From Candidatus Poribacteria bacterium (GTDB taxonomy: Bacteria; Poribacteria; WGA-4E; WGA-3G), in assembly GCA_022826805.1 (NCBI GenBank), contig JAJDUH010000044.1, forward strand, positions 92,862-156,861: a DNA stretch of 64,000 nucleotides. Reading direction: 5' to 3'. The notes under the pieces are model-generated. The model had not been told where the DNA came from. It saw only the letters and a program-made list of their open reading frames with translations, and ran no database searches. Position 1 is the first letter of the stretch. The number at the start of each line of letters is the position of its first letter. Positions 12,980-60,306 of this stretch are shown one piece after another. The position numbers and the translations under genes were made by a program.

Positions 12980-13063
12980 AAAATGTAAGGCAAAGACAAA
13001 TTTTGCGGCGTAAATCAGAATCAAAATCAACGGTATGAATGCCTTATGGCATGAACTGCGGGC
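12980..13063 (+). repeat. H-family mosaic hairpin element, copy H1 (modules AATGTAAGGCAAAGACAAATT + AATCAGAATCAAAATCAACGGTAT + hairpin GAATGCC-ttat-GGCAT)
   Basis: Modules are shared with the copies at 14634, 17706(-), 30865, 33429, 54329(-) and 60157(-). Confidence 0.75.
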
Positions 13064-14539: not shown

Positions 14540-14633
14540 TATTAAACCTTTCTATTACAGGACTTACGCAAATTGAGCAAATATCGGACATTTGGACCCA
14601 AAAAAGCGGTATTTTCTATATTTTTAACCCCCT

Positions 14634-14698
14634 CAAAAATCAACGGTATGAATGCCGTGTGGCATTCACCGCCCCTTATCAGGGGGACTTTAAGAAGC
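14634..14698 (+). repeat. H-family element, copy H2 (TCAACGGTAT + GAATGCC-gtgt-GGCATTC + terminal CCCCTTATCAGGGGGACTTTAAGAAG)
   Basis: The modules were compared directly with H3. Confidence 0.75.
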
Positions 14699-18000: not shown

Positions 18001-18021
18001 ATATGTATTACAATCGAATAA

Positions 18022-18215
18022 GCTGAACGGTTCAGGTGCCGGAAAAGCCGGAGAATAGGGAAGCGCGGTGAGAATCCGCCACGGCCCCGCCACTGTGAAC
18101 GATCATAAATATCCACTGAAAAAACCACTGTCAATTTACTGATGGGAAGGTTCAGCGGACTTTTGTAGGTGCAAACTACGTAAAAGATCGGAAGTCAGGA
18201 GACCTGCCTGAATCG
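18022..18215 (+). promoter_or_regulatory. cobalamin (B12-element) riboswitch aptamer
   Basis: The core is AATAGGGAAGCGCGGTGAGAATCCGCCACGGCCCCGCCACTGTGA, which includes the B12 box. Also present are CCACTG...GGGAAGG and GTCAGGAGACCTGCC. P1 is TTCAGG (18031-36) paired with CCTGAA (18207-12). Confidence 0.9.
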
Positions 18216-18355
18216 CGTTTCACACATCTGCTTTCGCGGGAAAGCAGTGGAACAGCGCGCAGCAATATCCTGTTAGACTACGGATCAAATACCAGCATAA
18301 GGTATGGAATTCTCACACATCATTACAGGATAAGACTTACACAGAATGTCGCCGT

Positions 18356-18414
18356 CCCCTCTGCTTCTCGGAGATGCTTGCTACAAAAAGCCACGAAAGC
18401 AGGGGTTTTTTGTT
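18356..18414 (+). terminator. riboswitch expression-platform terminator
   Basis: CCCCT(ct)GCTT pairs with AAGCAGGGG and is followed by TTTTTTGTTT. It ends 18 nt before the ATG at 18432. Its arms are also complementary to the hairpin at 18228-18247. Confidence 0.6.
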
Positions 18415-18431
18415 TCATTACGGAGGTTTTG

Positions 18432-19775
18432 ATGAACAAAGTTTTTTTCGCCTGGCGGCATTTATTGTGTTCACCATGTCACAAACCACTCTCACTCCTA
18501 CTTACAGGTATATTACTCCTAACGCTTCTCGTTAGTCCTGCCCTTGGACAAACAGAGGTACAAGACCTGGCGGTTGTCATAAATGCCTTGACACATCCCG
18601 ACTTGGGTATCACCGCTTCACTTTCACTCATCAATCAGGTGGAACCGAATGAAAGACGGGCGGTCGACAATGAAATACTCCGCTTCGGGATTGATCCTAT
18701 ACTGCGGCGGCGCGCAATTAGCCTCTCCATTCGTGGACATCTCGCGTATGTCCCGACTTTCAACTTACCCGTCACCGGCGGCACAAGTTCCGGCGACAAC
18801 ATCTTTATCATAAATTTGGAAGACCGAGAGTTTGTCGGCGAAATCCCGATCCAAGCGGGTACAACTCCGCAGCAGATCGCTTTCGTCAACGATCAGAAAC
18901 TATACGTCACGTGTGCAGCAACACATGAAGTGCATGTCGTTGACATTCCTAACCGTAACGTAACGAAGATTCTGACCGGCTCCTTCAACAAACCGACGGG
19001 CATCACGCTACTCAACGGCAAAGCTTACGTTTCAAATCCCGCATGGGAGTGGGATCCCGCTGCTGGGAAAGTAAACTATTACGATAGCACTGTCACAGTG
19101 ATTGATACGGAAACAGATTTCGTGTTGAAATCCATACCAGTGCCAACAAACGCAAGCACAATTGTTAACGATGGCGACTCTACCGTCATTCTCAAAACAA
19201 CTGGGAATTATAATGACATCCTGGGGCATCTCATTCTGATTGATACAGCGACCGATGAGATTGTCGAAACAGTTAAACTCGATTTCACGCCTGGCTCCAT
19301 CGCCCTTAATTCACAAAAGCAGCTGTTTATGCAAGGAAGCTGGCAAAATCCAGGTTTGCTCATTTACGATGTTGCAGCACGAGACTGGATCCGTGACGAA
19401 GACGATCCGATCGCTAATTTCAGCGACGATGCAGATGCGCCTATCAGCGGTTCCTTGGCTTTCGCACCCGATGGAAATCTCTATATCGCCAAGCCCGACT
19501 GGGGCGGCAGCGGGCAGGATTTCGTGCGCGTTATGAACGTGATAGATGCATCTCTTCTGAAAACCTATCACGTTGGACCCGGCGGCTCCATTGTCGGATT
19601 TGCACAGATCATTCCGCGCCCCGAAGATGTAAACAACGATGGATTTGTCAATGAGGCGGATTTAGTAATCGCGAGCCGGTTCTTGGGGGACGAGGGTCCC
19701 GGATTAGTCGCTGATGTCAATGGAGACGAAGTAGTCAATGTTCTTGATTTAGTGCTGATAGGTCAAGGACTCTAA
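18432..19775 (+). CDS. secreted beta-propeller (YVTN/YncE-like repeats) protein with C-terminal dockerin-like repeats
   Basis: GGAGG lies 5 nt upstream of the ATG at 18432. A signal peptide is present (LLLTLLVSPALGQ). Repeated blades are seen (KLYVTCAATHEVHVVD, KAYVSN.., VTVIDTETD). The C-terminus has DVNNDGFVNEADL and DVNGDEVVNVLDL. Confidence 0.8.
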   Translation: MNKVFFAWRHLLCSPCHKPLSLLLTGILLLTLLVSPALGQTEVQDLAVVINALTHPDLGITASLSLINQVEPNERRAVDNEILRFGIDPILRRRAISLSIRGHLAYVPTFNLPVTGGTSSGDNIFIINLEDREFVGEIPIQAGTTPQQIAFVNDQKLYVTCAATHEVHVVDIPNRNVTKILTGSFNKPTGITLLNGKAYVSNPAWEWDPAAGKVNYYDSTVTVIDTETDFVLKSIPVPTNASTIVNDGDSTVILKTTGNYNDILGHLILIDTATDEIVETVKLDFTPGSIALNSQKQLFMQGSWQNPGLLIYDVAARDWIRDEDDPIANFSDDADAPISGSLAFAPDGNLYIAKPDWGGSGQDFVRVMNVIDASLLKTYHVGPGGSIVGFAQIIPRPEDVNNDGFVNEADLVIASRFLGDEGPGLVADVNGDEVVNVLDLVLIGQGL

Positions 19776-30864: not shown

Positions 30865-30992
30865 GAATCAGAATCAAAATCAACGGTATCAATGCCTTAA
30901 TGGCATTGCCCGGGTATAAAGCCTATAAAGGCTTTACCGGGGTATGAATGCCTTATGGCATTCCCCACCCTTATCAGGGGGGAATTTAGAAG
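30865..30992 (+). repeat. H-family element, copy H3 (leader + three hairpin modules + terminal module)
   Basis: The element reads GAATCAGAATCAAAATCAACGGTAT, CAATGCC-ttaat-GGCATTG, CCCGGGTAT, AAAGCC-tataa-AGGCTTT, ACCGGGGTAT, GAATGCC-ttat-GGCATTC, CCCACCCTTATCAGGGGGGAATTTAGAAG. Confidence 0.8.
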
Positions 30993-33428: not shown

Positions 33429-33530
33429 AAATCAGAATCAACGGTATCAAGTCCGTGTGGACTTGCCCGGGTATGAATGCCTTGAATCAACGGTATGAAG
33501 TGCTTATGCACTTCCCCGGGCATTCCCCGT
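33429..33530 (+). repeat. H-family element, copy H4, containing a unit nested in the loop of another unit
   Basis: GAATGCC (33475-81) and GGCATTC (33519-25) are separated by GAATCAACGGTAT-GAAGTGC-ttat-GCACTTC-CCCG. Confidence 0.75.
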
Positions 33531-35846: not shown

Positions 35847-37148
35847 ATGCGAATCTTGAAGTATTGGGCACCGCCCCTTCTGTACATGGTCCTCATTTTC
35901 GTCATCTCGTCCATGGAGCAACCACCGCTCCCGATGCCGGAGTTTGAGTGGCTGACAATTGACAAACTCTACCATTTTATCGAATATGCCATACTCGGTG
36001 GATTACTCACACGCGCCTTTGTAGGGGCGAAACCTTCAATAGTACCATCACAATTGGTATGGTATATCGCAGCACTGCTCTCGATTCTTTATGGCGCGAG
36101 CGATGAATGGCATCAGACCTTCGTCCCGGGCAGATTTGCTACCATTGCGGATTGGGTTGCAGACGTGTTAGGATCAATTGCCGGTGCGTTTGGTGTCTAT
36201 CTCTATTATGGTTATCAGTCATCAGTACGTTCGCTACGCTCACTTTCGTTTATCAGCCCAGAGCCTACTGTGGACATTAATAACTTTAGCAATCGCCATA
36301 AGAACGTCCCGACAACTGACAGCCGACAACCGACAACGATAAAAAAAGGAATTAATATGCATTCACTTGTTGACTTAAAGGTGCCAGAAGGTGCTGTTGC
36401 TGTTCACTGGTTTGAACAGAGCAGTTTCGCGCTGAAAGATTCAGCGGGCACGATTGTCCAAATTGATCCCTATTTCCCGCGGGAACGTCCCGCCGACCGT
36501 TTTATTCATACCCAACCCCCACTCGATGAATCAACACTTCCAACTAATTTTGTTCTCTTGACTCACGCGCATGGAGATCACACCTGCTCAGAAACCATAC
36601 GCCGCATCTGGGAAACTTCCAATGCCACTCGGTTTGTTGGACCTGAAGAGAGCACACGCCAAATCTCGGAAGAAACAGATGTCTCGACAGAGAACATTTC
36701 AGAGATCCGAGCGGGAGAATCAGTAACGCTAAACAGACTCACTGTGCATGCCGTTTATGCAAAACCGCCCGACGGTGACCCGTCCGCGGATATAGCACCC
36801 CCCGATGTCACGCATTTAGGCTACATCATCGCCAGCAACGGCGTAACACTTTACTTCAGTGGCGATCCGATTAACAATTTCGCCGAGCATAACAAACTAA
36901 TTTCGGCAGTGGCAGCACACAAACCAGATGTCGGTTTCCTGACGAATCATCCCACCGAAGGTGAGTTCCCATTCTACGATGGATGCGTGAAAATGGCAAC
37001 GCGAATCGGGCTGACACACGCTGTGCCGGTGCATCGCGCCTGTTTTGTCACTCGCGATTACGATCCGAACGAGTGGGCATCCAACTTTCCTGCCGGCGGT
37101 CCTGAACCACTTATCATTGAGAGAAATTCACACATTATTTATTCATAG
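35847..37148 (+). CDS. VanZ-like membrane domain and MBL-fold metallohydrolase in one 433-aa ORF (possibly two genes bridged by repeat L4)
   Basis: The N-terminus is VanZ-like (YHFIEYAILG...SDEWHQ.FVPGR). The C-terminus is MBL-like (LLTHAHGDHT). An internal in-frame ATG at 36357 has AAGGA 6 nt upstream. Confidence 0.7.
   Translation: MRILKYWAPPLLYMVLIFVISSMEQPPLPMPEFEWLTIDKLYHFIEYAILGGLLTRAFVGAKPSIVPSQLVWYIAALLSILYGASDEWHQTFVPGRFATIADWVADVLGSIAGAFGVYLYYGYQSSVRSLRSLSFISPEPTVDINNFSNRHKNVPTTDSRQPTTIKKGINMHSLVDLKVPEGAVAVHWFEQSSFALKDSAGTIVQIDPYFPRERPADRFIHTQPPLDESTLPTNFVLLTHAHGDHTCSETIRRIWETSNATRFVGPEESTRQISEETDVSTENISEIRAGESVTLNRLTVHAVYAKPPDGDPSADIAPPDVTHLGYIIASNGVTLYFSGDPINNFAEHNKLISAVAAHKPDVGFLTNHPTEGEFPFYDGCVKMATRIGLTHAVPVHRACFVTRDYDPNEWASNFPAGGPEPLIIERNSHIIYS
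36210..36338 (+). repeat. L-family element, copy L4, lying inside ORF 35847..37148
   Basis: The sequence reads GGTTATCAGTCATCAGTA, then CGTTCGCTACGCTCACTTTCG, then ...CCGACAACTGACAGCCGACAACCGACAACG. The core matches L1 at nearly every position. Confidence 0.65.
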
Positions 37149-37231: not shown

Positions 37232-37759
37232 ATGTCGCTTCAAGAACAGAAAACTCCCCTTGTTGGTATTGTAATGGGAAGTGATTCCGACTTAGAGAAA
37301 ATGGCAGAAGCCGCAAAGATTTTAGAGGAATTTGAGGTCCCATTTGAGATAACCGTCTCCTCGGCGCACCGTTCACCAGAACGGACAGTCGCGTGGACGG
37401 AAAAAATCAAAGCAGAAGGCGGACAAGTAATTATTGCTGGTGCCGGACGCGCAGCGCACCTTGCCGGTGTTATTGCAGCACACACAACACTACCAGTGAT
37501 TGGTGTCCCAATTGACGGTGGTCCGCTCAACGGTGTGGACGCCCTTTATGCAACAGTGCAGATGCCTCCAGGTATCCCTGTCGGAACGATGGCAATTGGA
37601 TCCGGCGGTGCACGAAACGCTGGACTTTTTGCTGTCCAAATCCTGGCACTCCAATTCCCTGAACTGGATGCAAAATTGTTAGCATACAAAGAAAAGTTGA
37701 GTGATGGTGTCGCGGAGAAAGCGGCGCGCCTCCAAGAAGTCGGTTATCAGAATTATTAA
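37232..37759 (+). CDS. purE: N5-carboxyaminoimidazole ribonucleotide mutase
   Basis: PurE motifs are present (GIVMGSDSD, SAHRSP, IIAGAG.AAHL.GV.AA.T.LPVIGVP). Confidence 0.95.
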   Translation: MSLQEQKTPLVGIVMGSDSDLEKMAEAAKILEEFEVPFEITVSSAHRSPERTVAWTEKIKAEGGQVIIAGAGRAAHLAGVIAAHTTLPVIGVPIDGGPLNGVDALYATVQMPPGIPVGTMAIGSGGARNAGLFAVQILALQFPELDAKLLAYKEKLSDGVAEKAARLQEVGYQNY

Positions 37760-37760
37760 A

Positions 37761-37930
37761 TGGTTTTCAGTCTTCGGTTATCAGTTGTCGGAGGAAAGGT
37801 CATCGGTTTTCAGTGCGTTCACTTTCGGTTTTCAGTCACATATCGAGCAGGGAACGTCCTTTTATAAACGCCGGAACCGACAACCGAAAGCCTGCGTAGC
37901 AGGCGAACCGACAACTATGTAACCGACACC
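37761..37930 (+). repeat. L-family element, copy L6
   Basis: The arms are GGTTATCAGTTGTCGG and CCGACAACTATGTAACCG. The short core is GTGCGTTCACTTTCGG, and an inner hairpin is GCCTGC-gta-GCAGGC. Confidence 0.65.
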
Positions 37931-37954
37931 TATTTAACGAGAGGAGGCTTCTGC

Positions 37955-38635
37955 ATGTCCAACGAACAGAAACAAGGGCGAGACGATACAGAACTGTTTG
38001 ATATGATGGAAAAGCAGCTATACGCTGCTGTCCTTTCGGACGCTTTGGACGCAGCCGGGTACCGCGAGCAGGTACTACGACACACAATCCGTCCGCTGTA
38101 TCCTGATGCGATTGTCGTGGGCCGGGCGATGCCTGTGCTATGCGTAGAGGTTTACGAGATGCCAGATGAACCCTACCAGCAGGAAATCGCGGCGGTGGAC
38201 AGCCTTAAACCGAACGATGTGCTTGTCTGTTCCACTAACGAGAGTCCACGCATCTGCATTTGGGGCGAACTCCTTTCAACGGCAGCACGTGCGCGTGGGG
38301 CGCGTGGGGCTGTCATCGAAGGCTTCATCCGAGATGCTCGCCAGATCATGGCGATGCAGTTCCCTGTGTTTATGACGGGTTTATCGCCTATTGATTCTTA
38401 CGGACGTGGCGATGTGATGGCATACAATGTTCCAATCGAATGTGGTGGTGTCACGGTTAATCCAGGTGACATCGTTTTCGGGGACATAGATGGCCTCGTT
38501 GTTATTCCACAAGCGGTGGAAGTAGAAGTGATTGAGGCAGCGTTGGCAAAGGTGAGCGGTGAAAACCGCACACGAGACGAACTCCGCGCCGGTGCGACAC
38601 TTCGGGAAGTTTATGATAAGTACGGAATTTTGTGA
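37955..38635 (+). CDS. RraA-family protein (RNase E regulator A / HMG-CHA aldolase-like)
   Basis: The sequence is RraA-like (GELLSTAARARGARGAVIEGFIRD, GD....D.DG.VVIP). Confidence 0.85.
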   Translation: MSNEQKQGRDDTELFDMMEKQLYAAVLSDALDAAGYREQVLRHTIRPLYPDAIVVGRAMPVLCVEVYEMPDEPYQQEIAAVDSLKPNDVLVCSTNESPRICIWGELLSTAARARGARGAVIEGFIRDARQIMAMQFPVFMTGLSPIDSYGRGDVMAYNVPIECGGVTVNPGDIVFGDIDGLVVIPQAVEVEVIEAALAKVSGENRTRDELRAGATLREVYDKYGIL

Positions 38636-38702
38636 TGAATAGGACTTACGCAAAATTGTGTTGAAACACGTATCTTTGACAATAAAGATATTTCCCACCA
38701 GA

Positions 38703-38775
38703 GGATCGGTGCGGAATGTAAAGCTAAGACAAATTGCGCTTTAATACCACAATTTGAAACCGCTCCTACCAGTGG
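38703..38775 (+). repeat. B-family (GTAGG-stem) palindromic element, copy B1
   Basis: The copy GGATCGGTGCGGAATGTAAAGCTAAGACAAATTGCGCTTTAATACCACAATTTGAAACCGCTCCTACCAGTGG is about 88 percent identical to 60235-60306 by eye. Confidence 0.8.
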
Positions 38776-38793
38776 AAAAGGAAAATTAGAAAA

Positions 38794-39123: not shown

Positions 39124-39179
39124 AGTAAGTGAAGTCCGAAAATACGTCTCGTCTCCACGGTAGAGATCTACACACCCCT

Positions 39180-39208
39180 CGTAGGGGTTGGGTTACCTAA
39201 CCCCTACG
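39180..39208. repeat. perfect 10-bp-stem GTAGG-type hairpin between convergent genes (possible bidirectional terminator)
   Basis: The hairpin is CGTAGGGGTT-gggttacct-AACCCCTACG. There is no clear T tract. Confidence 0.5.
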
Positions 39209-39250
39209 GTGCCCGCCGAATGCACAAATAATTATGGGCTTTACTATAAT

Positions 39251-39287
39251 CAGAAACCTCTTTAACCAACAACTAACAACCAATAAT
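39251..39287. repeat. L-family arm-type fragment (AAACCTCTTT + AACCAACAACTAACAACCAATAATC)
   Basis: AAACCTCTTT is shared with L9, and the word structure resembles the L arms. Confidence 0.4.
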
Positions 39288-46868: not shown

Positions 46869-47005
46869 TGGCACTTGGCAATTAGCGATTAACTATTAGC
46901 AAGAGGTCATTCGGAACTCGTAATCTCTCTGTTCTTTCTTGCTCTCTGCGAATTGCCATAAGTGGAGCGTAGCGGAACGCCCTAATTGCTGTCCGCTAAT
47001 TACCA
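46869..47005 (-). repeat. L-family element, copy L7 (CAATTAGC-type arms; core GGGCGTTCCGCTACGCTCCACTT in minus sense)
   Basis: The core and arm pattern were compared with L1 and L9. Confidence 0.65.
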
Positions 47006-49955: not shown

Positions 49956-50081
49956 TTCGGTTACTGGTTCGCCTGCTGCGCAGGCTTTCAGTTGTCGGTT
50001 ATCAGTTAGGAGCAATTGACGCGTGTCAAGCCCCTCCTACTGATAACCGAAAGGATTGCACAGCAATCCGAACTGACAACC
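49956..50081. repeat. L-family element, copy L8 (arms CAGTTGTCGGTTATCAGTTA / TACTGATAACCG..GAACTGACAACC; inner hairpins GCCTGC-tgc-GCAGGC, GATTGC-aca-GCAATC)
   Basis: The inverted arms and hairpins were read directly. The element fills the lon-clpX spacer. Confidence 0.6.
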
Positions 50082-51600: not shown

Positions 51601-51730
51601 GGCAATTAGCAATTAGCAATTGGCAGATAGCAATTGGCAAGAAAAAAAGAGGTTTCCGAGTTATCCAATTACCAATTGCCAAAAATGGCTTCGGCTTTCA
51701 AAGTGAACGCCCTAATAGCCAATAGCCGAA
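51601..51730 (-). repeat. L-family element, copy L9 (AATTAGC heptad arms; core GGGCGTTCACTTTGAAAGCC in minus sense)
   Basis: One arm is GGCAATTAGCAATTAGCAATTGGCAGATAGCAATTGGC and the other is CCAATTACCAATTGCC. The element fills the clpX-clpP spacer. Confidence 0.7.
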
Positions 51731-52340: not shown

Positions 52341-52504
52341 TTCTTTAACTTTCCTTGCGGTTCGGTCAGGCAAGTTTTGCAAAAACAATCCTTGGCGTAT
52401 ATCCAGCCCGGCCCGTTGGTTGGGCTTACGAACTTTTGGCTATAAGACGTGCAGAATTATTAACGCCTCCCCGTCAAATCCGATGCCTTAGCGTGTGAGT
52501 TGGA

Positions 52505-54297: not shown

Positions 54298-54328
54298 AAA
54301 TTTTGTTCCACGGACTCTCACTGCGAGA

Positions 54329-54484
54329 CCGGGGAATGCCATTAAGGCATTCATACCCGGTAAAGCCTTTATAGGCTTTATACCCGGGGAATGCTTTATA
54401 GCATTCATACCGTTGATTTTGATTCTGATTTACGCGCATTCCGCTGTTGGTTGACGCGGCAAAATTTATTTTTCCCTTACATTC
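54329..54484 (-). repeat. H-family element, copy H5 (full mosaic: AATGTAAGGG... module, leader, three hairpin modules)
   Basis: The reverse complement aligns module by module with H1 and H3. Confidence 0.8.
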
Positions 54485-59896: not shown

Positions 59897-60156
59897 CACC
59901 TTCCATCATCTCAGATGTCGTAGGTTGGGTTGAACAGTGTTGAAAAGCAAGTGCCGAACCGCCAAAATATATCAAGTCTAACATACCCGTGTATACACCC
60001 AAGAAACCAGTGAAACCCAACACGCTTGGCGTGAAACGCTGGAAATTGGCATTAAGTTTGCGTTGGGTTTCGCTATAGTTTCCTTGATTTCTATGAAGGT
60101 GTAGGGTGCCGAAGTGTACTTGGCGGTATCAATATGGCTTTTCTGGGTTCTGCTCA

Positions 60157-60195
60157 ACCCCGGTGAATGCCCTAAGGCATTCATACCGTTGATTT
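60157..60195 (-). repeat. H-family element, copy H6 (single hairpin unit)
   Basis: The reverse complement reads AAATCAACGGTAT-GAATGCC-ttag-GGCATTC-ACCGGGG. Confidence 0.75.
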
Positions 60196-60234
60196 CCTAC
60201 ACTGCTTTAGACATTAAAGGTGCTGATAACCATT

Positions 60235-60306
60235 GGATCGGTGCGGCATGTAAAGCTAAGACAAATTGTGCTTTAATAGCACAATTTCAAACCGCACCTA
60301 CTGGTG
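60235..60306 (+). repeat. B-family (GTAGG-stem) palindromic element, copy B2
   Basis: The outer stem is GGTGCGG...CCGCACC and the inner perfect hairpin is AAATTGTGC-tttaat-a-GCACAATTT. It lies 18 nt from the sulfatase stop. Confidence 0.8.

Follow-up and report, generated by a model that had tools for sequence, protein, structure and literature searches.

The L elements are intergenic blocks in the genome of a sponge symbiont, Candidatus Poribacteria (a draft of 5.09 Mb and 47% GC, here called G000). Nine of them (L1-L9) and one fragment lie in the 64,000-nt stretch analysed here (contig C8:92862-156861), which we call the window. We think it likely that they are composite non-coding repeat DNA of the same kind as the short tandemly repeated repetitive (STRR) sequences and TAACTGA heptamer repeats of other bacteria. 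We determined their anatomy and census, the rule that their orientation and position follow, the covariation of a module nested inside them, their spread through the genus and their turnover among relatives. An element has three parts: a T-rich array (GTTATCA/GTTGTCG and similar words) by the upstream stop codon, a centre specific to the locus, and an A-rich array (AACTGAT/AACTGAC/AACCGAT and similar words) by the downstream ribosome-binding site (RBS). An earlier note on this DNA had delimited ten such stretches, and all ten are present where it placed them, between the genes it named. Its description of the small GC hairpins, of the words in each alphabet and of the ends of L2 (GGCTATCGG/CCGATAGCC) was likewise borne out. 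In what follows, positions are those of the window unless a contig of G000 is named, and L followed by three digits, as well as G154, denotes loci or genomes of relatives. The closest clpX loci all belong to Candidatus Poribacteria metagenome-assembled genomes, the best with 98% amino-acid identity.

In each arm of an element, 7-nt units of the TAACTGA/AACTGAC type are repeated imperfectly in tandem. A "T-type" array in this context is one whose given strand reads like GTTATCA, and an "A-type" array is one that reads like AACTGAT. Autocorrelation in the window found six tracts at lag 7 and four at lag 14, with 0-3 at the remaining lags. Genome-wide, with genes called crudely as longest open reading frames (ORFs) and intergenic DNA making up ~12% of the genome, Tandem Repeats Finder (TRF) returned 175 intergenic and 35 coding arrays of period 7 and 80 intergenic and 25 coding arrays of period 14; every other period gave at most 47 intergenic arrays. 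The most frequent consensus units were AACTGAC (70), AACTGAT (57), AACCGAT (26), AAAACTG (20) and AATTAGC (10). TAACTGA is also the most intergenic-enriched 7-mer that is not a homopolymer (434 intergenic and 339 coding occurrences, ratio 9.9), and the pattern AACYGAN x3 matches the genome 142 times, against 3 times for a reversed control. As a class of repeats, the elements stand well outside what chance would give. Among the window copies the alphabets split coarsely, with L1, L7 and L9 being AATTAGC-like and the others CAGTTATCGGTT-like.

After merging, there are 372 intergenic arrays in the genome, and L elements fill ~8% of all spacers. Paired elements are moderately enriched in spacers between co-directional genes (108/125 against 72% expected, p=1.4e-4), and the genes next to arrays are functionally unrelated (e.g., tRNA synthetase, amino-acid synthesis, proteases and purE). 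The suggestion that the elements belong specifically to essential operons does not survive these figures, i.e., an occurrence in ~8% of all spacers and an enrichment that is only moderate.

The two array types have a strongly preferred order. When arrays were searched for a reverse-complement partner within 250 nt, the T-type array came first in 109 cases and second in 13 at a score of >=20, and in 64 and 2 cases at a score of >=24, with no pairs in shuffled controls at either threshold. TRF arrays lying <=200 nt apart gave the same picture: 35 were T-type then A-type, 6 were both T-type, 6 were both A-type, and 2 were A-type then T-type. The T-then-A arrangement is its own reverse complement, so an element has the same appearance on both strands. 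Position relative to genes is equally regular. In co-directional spacers, the median T-type array lies 5-12 nt past the upstream stop codon and the median A-type array lies 18-25 nt before the predicted start. Of the 140 sense A-type arrays, 115 are closer to a start than to a stop. Arrays with no partner follow the same rule, with T-type arrays closer to the stop by 43:10 and A-type arrays closer to the start by 60:21. Ordinary Shine-Dalgarno sequences come after the arrays.

Nested in the arrays is a smaller unit of ~30 nt with the plan CTGAAAG - stem of 5-8 bp - GNA loop - complementary stem - CGTACTGA (the last being CG(T/A)ACTGA). Its loops are GCA (21 copies), GTA (14), GAA (6) and others. 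The genome holds 46 copies with a perfect stem (about 42-46), 42/46 of them intergenic and with heptamers on both sides; the module is always embedded in heptamer arrays, and its polarity is fixed relative to the heptamer strand. The small GC hairpins reported earlier belong to this module, which in the form CTGAAAG-N13-19-CGTACTGA lies inside A-type arrays. When matches were selected by flanks only, 37% had a perfect terminal stem of >=5 bp, compared to 0.16% of shuffled inserts, and 18 distinct stems were recovered. For covariation we used 24 module copies chosen by flanks and context. In these, 83% of cells pair (64% in shuffles), 26 cells have changed on both sides (7.8 in shuffles), and the covariation score is 0.437 against 0.169 for shuffled copies (0/500 reach it) and <=0.156 for slid controls. 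A target-site duplication of ACTGA around the module was considered and rejected: the right flank CGTACTGA is constant whatever the left heptamer, so this flank is part of the module.

The "constant core" that the earlier note described (CGTTCGCYACGCTCACTTTC; long form CGTTCGCTACGCTCACTTTC) turns out to be another face of this module. It sits in the T-type arm, and its reverse complement, GAAAG-TGAGCGTAGCGAA-CG, has the module flanks, a GC-GTA-GC apex and a degenerate stem. Core and GC hairpins share flanks and apex and so make up a single nested repeat family, which is absent from L3 and L5. The core is less constant than had been claimed, being found in 5-6 of the 9 copies and in several forms: the short core is the long core minus a 9-nt insert, and the variants GAAAG-TGGAGCGCAGCGGAA-CG and GAAAG-CGAACGCAGTGAG-CG are recurrent in the genome and in relatives. 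Further copies of it are spread through the genome, each of them within a heptamer array.

Of 80 matches to the module flanks in unrelated viral DNA, 79 lacked a hairpin, and a plasmid collection that included cyanobacterial plasmids gave chance-level matches only. The one true viral copy is on an IMG/VR contig (L194, IMGVR_UViG_3300009936_000003), where positions 390-423 carry a genuine module in heptamer context (CTGAAAGATTTTTTCGGAGAAAAAATCGTACTGA); this contig may come from a Poribacteria provirus or phage, or may be host DNA that was filed wrongly.

Both the module and the arrays are spread throughout the genus. The module pattern was found in 54/56 genomes of the same genus, with up to 70 matches each; there were single matches in 3/38 genomes of the sister genus and in 3/56 other genomes, and the reversed control gave 0-2. 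AACYGAN x3 arrays were found in 56/56 genomes of the genus (up to ~290 matches each), in 28/38 of the sister genus (1-32 matches) and, with few matches, in 7/56 others. The dominant module stems vary by species (e.g., ATTTTTC-GCA-GAAAAAT in one and GGTTGC-GTA-GCAACC in another). Among clpX loci, period-7 arrays occur in 48/57 from Poribacteria (155 arrays in 727 kb), compared to 4/23 from outgroups (5 arrays in 261 kb), and the Poribacteria loci include further array alphabets: AGCCATC/CTGACGG, AGTTATA, AGTAACC and TAACAGT.

At individual sites the elements come and go. The clpX-lon spacer, which holds L8 in the window, is 11-12 nt long in six relatives, i.e., a Shine-Dalgarno sequence and start codon only; in other relatives it holds elements with heptamer arms of varied composition, sometimes with another repeat inserted. 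L6 is missing in L083, L087, L094 and L096, where the spacer is 6-15 nt. The site upstream of purE, which holds L5, is filled in most genus members, with the module in the left arm, the right arm or neither, depending on the genome; it is empty in L103, and one empty spacer at this site is 16 nt. In the closest genome (L001/G154), whose genes are 95-97% identical, L8 and L9 have orthologues that are ~91-92% identical and differ by indels of 6-8 nt, roughly the size of a unit: 127/140 positions are identical for L8, with a 7-nt unit indel, and 157/170 for L9. Over 20 kb of comparison with this ~95%-identical genome, none of L3-L9 has been gained or lost, but two other repeats do differ. In the short term, then, the elements are vertically inherited, drift at about twice the rate of genes and change by repeat units; over longer times they are gained, lost and remodelled.

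We infer that slipped-strand mispairing makes the arrays grow and shrink in 7-nt steps and that modules enter and leave arrays which already exist. The elements would then be mostly neutral or selfish DNA, which persists and is tolerated only where the strand before start codons is the stop-rich A/C-rich one. Several points weigh against this reading. The strict position rule of partnerless arrays could reflect function instead of tolerance, and so could the long persistence of the purE-upstream element across the genus. The census rests on the crude gene calls noted above. Finally, a full-length subfamily, introduced below, looks more like a transposed unit than like growth in situ, so part of the class may be mobile. 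As to what the elements might do, one could guess that the hairpin, if transcribed within operons, alters the stability of intercistronic mRNA or translational coupling; we hold this guess to be a tentative one, with the balance against it. Three other explanations (MITE-like transposons, a selected RNA and protein-binding sites) may each be right in part, and none of them is favoured by the strand, covariation and polymorphism tests.

The L elements had been treated as one repeat family, and as a single homologous family they do not hold together. BLAST of L1-L9 against the genome recovers only arms and modules of <=58 nt. Because the centres are unique to their loci and only arms and modules recur, the "L family" is a class of shared modules and not a lineage of copies. 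One subfamily is different: at least 34 full-length palindromic elements of ~130-150 nt with heptamer arms, 73-82% identical to each other and none of them in the window. Its palindromic centre runs GTTAAGAG...TGTAACAATTCACC...CTTGGAATATTCCAAG...GGTGAATTGTTACA...CTCTTAAC, and examples in G000 are C15:149172-149311, C34:158551-158673 and C31:4314-4440 (loci L124-L137). This subfamily is the member of the class that most resembles a miniature inverted-repeat transposable element (MITE).

It speaks for regarding all L elements as MITE-like non-autonomous transposons, in which palindromic units (TAGTTGTCAG...CTGACAACTA) would insert, often at TA beside stop codons, and the arrays would be ends with multiple transposase-binding sites. 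Relatives have precise empty and filled sites (TAA-...-AGGAAAAAGAT), TAGTT...AACTA termini recur, a fixed terminal inverted repeat would produce the invariable T-then-A order, and the genome has IS630-family transposases. We nevertheless consider this explanation unlikely, given that the centres of L1-L9 are locus-unique and that these elements were stable against G154 over a distance in which two other repeats changed. Filled and empty sites show TA-like termini but no clear target-site duplication. A search for an autonomous element bounded by heptamer arms gave 12 candidates, all of which were merely neighbouring spacers, so no gene was found between matching heptamer ends. As a partner, IS630 was rejected: its ends (GGGCTTTACTATA) differ from the L ends and it has its own MITE of ~20 copies.

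REP-associated tyrosine transposases (RAYTs) were also rejected as partners. The genome has five Y1_Tnp (RAYT-like) matches, one of them partial, and the flank survey covered the other four (C33:10609-11205, C27:116073-116459, C57:96569-97120 and C71:108257-108730). All four are flanked by their own, different repetitive extragenic palindrome (REP) hairpins (e.g., TACACCTATCGCCCCGCTGGGGCTTT) in a classic REP-RAYT arrangement, and neither the module nor heptamers serve as the flanking REP of any of them. Y1_Tnp counts were 42/43 for g1 and 36/40 for g9, and because Y1_Tnp is equally frequent in a module-less genus, there is no phyletic link between it and the module.

A related idea concerns the nested unit only. 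It could be an autonomous, ultra-small (~30 nt) mobile element that homes into heptamer arrays in fixed polarity, recognised by its shape (a GNA-triloop hairpin) and its flanks and spread by a putative enzyme. Its stem variants would have been amplified in different species of one genus, and the arrays would serve both as a landing pad and as gene-boundary punctuation read by a lineage-specific factor. We offer this as speculation and do not expect it to hold.

The next explanation is that the elements are a selected cis-acting RNA structure. Selection would maintain a long hairpin, formed by the two arms in the operon mRNA, that serves for processing, stabilisation, attenuation or coupling. 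The earlier note had gone in this direction, proposing long structured RNAs or DNA cruciforms and reporting that the arms differ between copies but co-vary within a copy. The capacity to form long imperfect hairpins or cruciforms is borne out by the T-then-A order and by folding: on the sense strand, fold z-scores against shuffles range from -1.2 to -6.9 and are -3 to -7 for most copies. The antisense strand folds similarly, however, and since T-type and A-type arrays are in general rough reverse complements of each other, a long imperfect hairpin is possible on either strand for any such pair.

Covariation between the arms was not seen. For the nine window copies, a 9x9 comparison of left halves with reverse-complemented right halves gave a diagonal sum of 198, where permutations averaged 175 (p=0.11), with the own arm being the best partner in 2/9 rows. 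Our unbiased set comprised 35 arm pairs for which TRF called both arms in one spacer, with pairing not considered. In this set, complementarity was 0.529 for own arms and 0.532 across elements (p=0.57), 6-mer composition was not more alike within an element (p=0.97), and arm lengths were uncorrelated (rho -0.16). An apparent positive result, in which the own arm was best in 13/127 elements, is discounted because those elements had been selected for pairing. For 14 full-length relatives of one subfamily, RNAalifold predicted arm pairing, but covariation contributed just -0.17 kcal/mol, and in the same 14 the variable heptamer positions pair as AU/GC scarcely more than as GU/AC. The hairpin potential is thus real but generic, and it is not tuned within each element. 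Of the two outcomes that the earlier note named as refuting its finding, the first, arms lacking covariation support, is what we see, and the second, a core that does not recur in the genome, is not.

Strand-based signals of RNA were likewise missing. An excess of G-U-compatible transition mismatches on the sense strand was looked for and rejected (184 sense, 171 antisense). In co-directional spacers, the nested module lies in sense orientation 21 times and in antisense 15 times (p=0.41), and the core's orientation to transcription, 10 against 4 with double counting, is not significant. Rfam gave no match for any L element or for 10 conserved-centre copies, either at the gathering score or at E<=0.5. 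There are points on the other side, namely the co-directional enrichment, the tight placement (with 5-12 nt between the stop and the 5' arm, and with the 3' arm reaching the RBS), the retention of the purE-upstream element in most genus members, and the proposal of these very roles for STRR hairpins in the hupS-hupL spacer (PMC2670836). Set against close relatives that lack an element at the same sites, and against arms that pair no better with each other than with foreign arms, they leave a selected RNA structure improbable in our judgement. So the hairpin-forming part of the earlier proposal stands, and the proposed mRNA role has no strand signal behind it.

A third explanation takes the heptamers to be reiterated DNA or RNA sites for a lineage-specific factor, with A-type arrays in 5' leaders acting in translation initiation, a role proposed for the TAACTGA repeats of Beggiatoaceae; the inversion would then be a by-product of separate rules for stops and starts. 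The obedience of unpaired arrays to the position rule is what one would expect in that case, and the A-type arms of L5 and L1 end 3-7 nt before an ATG. The same heptamer, with the same forward placement before starts, occurs in BOGUAY (PMC4679880), and in Nostoc a reporter's output changed upon heptamer deletion (bioRxiv 10.1101/2022.06.06.494920). Yet no candidate protein emerged: XisH and XisI gave no matches, with control genomes equally silent, and Y1 transposases have the wrong distribution. A sequence-specific binder would be expected to hold the alphabets constant, yet they drift freely from lineage to lineage; the arrays are followed by ordinary Shine-Dalgarno sequences, and the neighbouring genes have unrelated functions. 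We would be surprised if this explanation proved correct.

Transcription termination, another role that had been suggested, finds no backing in the whole elements, which are followed by an RBS and start codon and not by a T tract. Nested hairpins form weak terminator-like sites in the T-arm orientation only (49971-49985, 37904-37890 and 50069-50053), and such sites in the region are not above expectation (25 against 18.3 +/- 4.4 in shuffles).

The architecture was unfamiliar to the earlier note, and close precedents for it do exist (PMC4679880, PMC2670836). Heptamer repeats of the TAACTGA type are known from marine Beggiatoaceae, some Cyanobacteria and Bacteroidetes (MacGregor 2015, PMC4679880), where they are mostly forward and just 5' of starts, show 7-nt indels between strains and have repeat-free spacers as counterparts in relatives; the proteins XisH and XisI are co-distributed with them (PMC4679880). 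The L elements share the tandem TAACTGA units or near variants, the intergenic location, the forward orientation before starts and the lack of a common gene function, as well as the 7-nt indels and the shorter, repeat-free spacers of relatives. They differ in that BOGUAY has 169 direct sets and 1 inverted set (1/170), whereas in Poribacteria the inverted T-then-A arrangement is the rule (35:2). The Poribacteria arrays are also imperfect mixtures of variants, are followed by a normal Shine-Dalgarno sequence and contain a nested module, and Poribacteria are not among the reported hosts.

STRRs were described in cyanobacteria in 1990; the units of STRR1-3 are CCCCAGT, TTGGTCA and CAACAGT. Like the L elements, they are 7-bp tandem units dispersed intergenically within one lineage and can form hairpins between co-transcribed genes; the roles proposed for them, transcript stability and translational coupling, are those that would fit the Poribacteria elements. 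The Poribacteria units differ in sequence from STRR1-3; the host is not a cyanobacterium, and the cyanobacterial repeat HIP1 is not abundant in its genome (202 copies). No orientation rule relative to gene boundaries is known to have been quantified for STRRs. In filamentous cyanobacteria, hairpin-capable 7-bp STRR arrays between co-transcribed genes, such as hupS-hupL, are "not unusual", and the roles given for these hairpins are suggestions (PMC2670836). For Nostoc, the heptamer deletion mentioned above was upstream of recO/recF (bioRxiv 10.1101/2022.06.06.494920).

The nested module also has a possible counterpart, and we compare the two by description only, in part through citing papers (PMC5861425, PMC3116915). 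Both are small nested units with conserved ends and a compensated hairpin. The Poribacteria module differs in its flanks (CTGAAAG...CGTACTGA) and its GNA triloop, and it is confined to one genus (54/56 genomes, against 3/38 in the sister genus). The possible counterparts are the small dispersed repeats (SDRs) of Nostoc punctiforme, which Elhai et al. in 2008 reportedly described as 20-30 nt long and nested in other repeats, heptamer arrays included. Their ends are said to be conserved around a hairpin in which stem variation is compensated, and they are said to be lineage-restricted. Reports of SDRs are limited to Nostocaceae (PMC5861425).

REPs and REPINs (REP doublets forming hairpins), with their RAYTs, are short extragenic palindromes present in many copies, lineage-specific and regarded as selfish mobile DNA (PMC3116915). 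L elements resemble them as short, multi-copy extragenic palindromes that are often arranged to form a larger hairpin. REPs are not made of tandem heptamers, however, and the four Y1_Tnp genes surveyed in this genome are flanked by other REPs. Bacterial MITEs, which include Nezha of Anabaena and Nostoc, have in common with L elements a length of 70-170 nt, terminal inverted symmetry, intergenic location and presence or absence at orthologous sites, and one L subfamily reaches at least 34 full-length copies. On the other hand, L1-L9 are not homologous over their entire length, no clear target-site duplication and no autonomous partner turned up for them, and the genuine IS630-type MITE of this genome ends in GGGCTTTACTATA.

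Repeats of the TAACTGA/STRR type are thus found in a new phylum, Poribacteria; earlier reports of such repeats there did not emerge from our literature search, which only partly named Poribacteria. This genus of sponge symbionts, in which such repeats are a dominant feature of intergenic DNA, provides an independent lineage for the study of STRR function, with many chromosomes in one to few contigs. The placement of T-type arrays after stops and A-type arrays before starts is a testable rule. One may also ask whether such repeats have a common source in Cyanobacteria, Beggiatoaceae, Bacteroidetes and Poribacteria or have been exchanged among them. Since the elements evolve at about twice the gene rate and in 7-nt steps, they are usable as strain-typing markers for uncultivated symbionts. 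They can also mislead gene callers, as happens at L4 and L9 (see below).

The window copies illustrate the range of the class. L6 (37761-37930, plus strand) fills the spacer between purE (37232-37759) and an RraA-like gene (37955-38635) and has a T-type arm, a unique centre and an A-type arm, with TRF arrays at 37762-37791 and 37906-37938. It folds with a minimum free energy of -56.7 kcal/mol (z -4.1). Its T-type arm contains the short core form GCGTTCACTTT (37815-37825, plus strand), and its A-type arm contains a nested module, GAAAG-CCTGC-GTA-GCAGG-CGAAC (37886-37908, plus strand); this A-type arm with its module matches many loci in genomes of the same genus at 88-100% identity. On the other side of purE, L5 (37157-37228, plus strand; z -5.3) fills the spacer after an MBL-fold gene, and its A-type arm, TAACTGAAAACCGA repeated 2.5 times, stops 3 nt short of the purE ATG.

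L1 (2784-2896, plus strand) lies in the proS-sucD spacer, has the long core at 2808-2825, and its A-type arm stops 7 nt before the sucD ATG. L2 (16977-17145, minus strand), in the hisI-trpE spacer, carries the terminal words given above and a nested module, GAAAG-GGTTGC-GCG-GCAACC-CGACC. L3 (35613-35688, plus strand) is immediately 3' of an ilvD/edd-family dehydratase gene and has short arms (AGCGGTCAG/CTGACCGCT) and no core. L7 (46869-47005, minus strand), between an S4-domain gene and pdxA, has AATTAGC-type arms and a 10+10 core variant, CGTTCCGCTACGCTCCACTT, at ~46960-46979. L8 (49956-50081, minus strand; z -6.9) lies in the clpX-lon spacer, and each of its arms has one nested module (stems at 49971-49985 and 50053-50069). 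The fragment (39251-39287, minus strand) is a T-type array straight after the stop codon of a C25-peptidase gene, followed by GTTAAAGAGG, and it abuts an IS630-type MITE end.

L4 (36210-36338, plus strand; long core at 36228-36245) is in frame inside an ORF, 35847-37148, which fuses a VanZ-like domain to an MBL-fold hydrolase across the element. No stop codon precedes the ATG of the MBL-fold part (36358), which has its own AAAGGA, and the frame is also open and gapless in a 96%-identical genome. The two genes may truly be fused or read through, or a stop may have been lost and the loss tolerated since the second gene has its own start. L9 (51601-51730, minus strand), in the clpP-clpX spacer, has AATTAGC/GGCTATT-type arms and a short core at ~51701-51709. 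The longest clpX ORF begins at a TTG inside it (51601-51612); as relatives align only from residue 5-11, the true clpX start is probably a few codons downstream.

Other repeats share the window with the L elements. The IS630-type MITE end beside the truncated L arm (39160-39250, ...AATAATTATGGGCTTTACTATA) has ~20 related copies with a common terminal sequence, and IS630-family transposase fragments at the ends of contigs C2, C29, C34, C36, C60 and C63 share that terminal sequence. A ~150-nt repeat at 38637-38792, between the RraA-like gene and a NIPSNAP gene, has a second copy at 60207-60306; given that G154 has only 47 nt at the orthologous site and carries many copies elsewhere, this repeat appears recently mobile, unlike L3-L9. 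The tig-clpP spacer (52389-52504) is ~108 nt longer than in G154, and the extra piece is a polymorphic repeat that is copied elsewhere in G154. In the clpX-lon spacer of many other Poribacteria (L002-L004, L012, L014, L015, L018, L019, L021, L027, L034, L037, L041, L045 and L055) there is a conserved sequence of ~100-200 nt that is unrelated to L (GCACAGTTTTGTGGATGAGCCGTTTGCCAATTTGGCAAAAC...AATAGCATTTCATTCC...GAAATCTAAAAAATGCTGG) and is a possible leader or regulatory RNA for lon.

Among the genes of the window, checked with Pfam, are lon, sucD and genes for a sulfatase, a CotH-ankyrin protein and a C25 peptidase that has a FlgD_ig tail. A cyanobacterial origin of the window was considered and rejected, since these genes and the relatives of clpX point to Poribacteria. 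At 18017-18225, upstream of a gene at 18378-19775, there is a cobalamin riboswitch (105.6 bits). Finally, a separate family resembling bacterial interspersed mosaic elements (BIMEs) or REPs occurs at 12980-13063, 14626-14698, 30866-30992, 33430-33530, 54328-54435 and 60154-60195. It consists of tandem 27-28-nt units with 6-7-bp hairpins whose stems vary (e.g., GAATGCC-TTAT-GGCATTC and AAAGCC-TATAA-GGCTTT) beside AAATCAACGGTAT, and a repeat of this family is also inserted in an L element of the relative L006.

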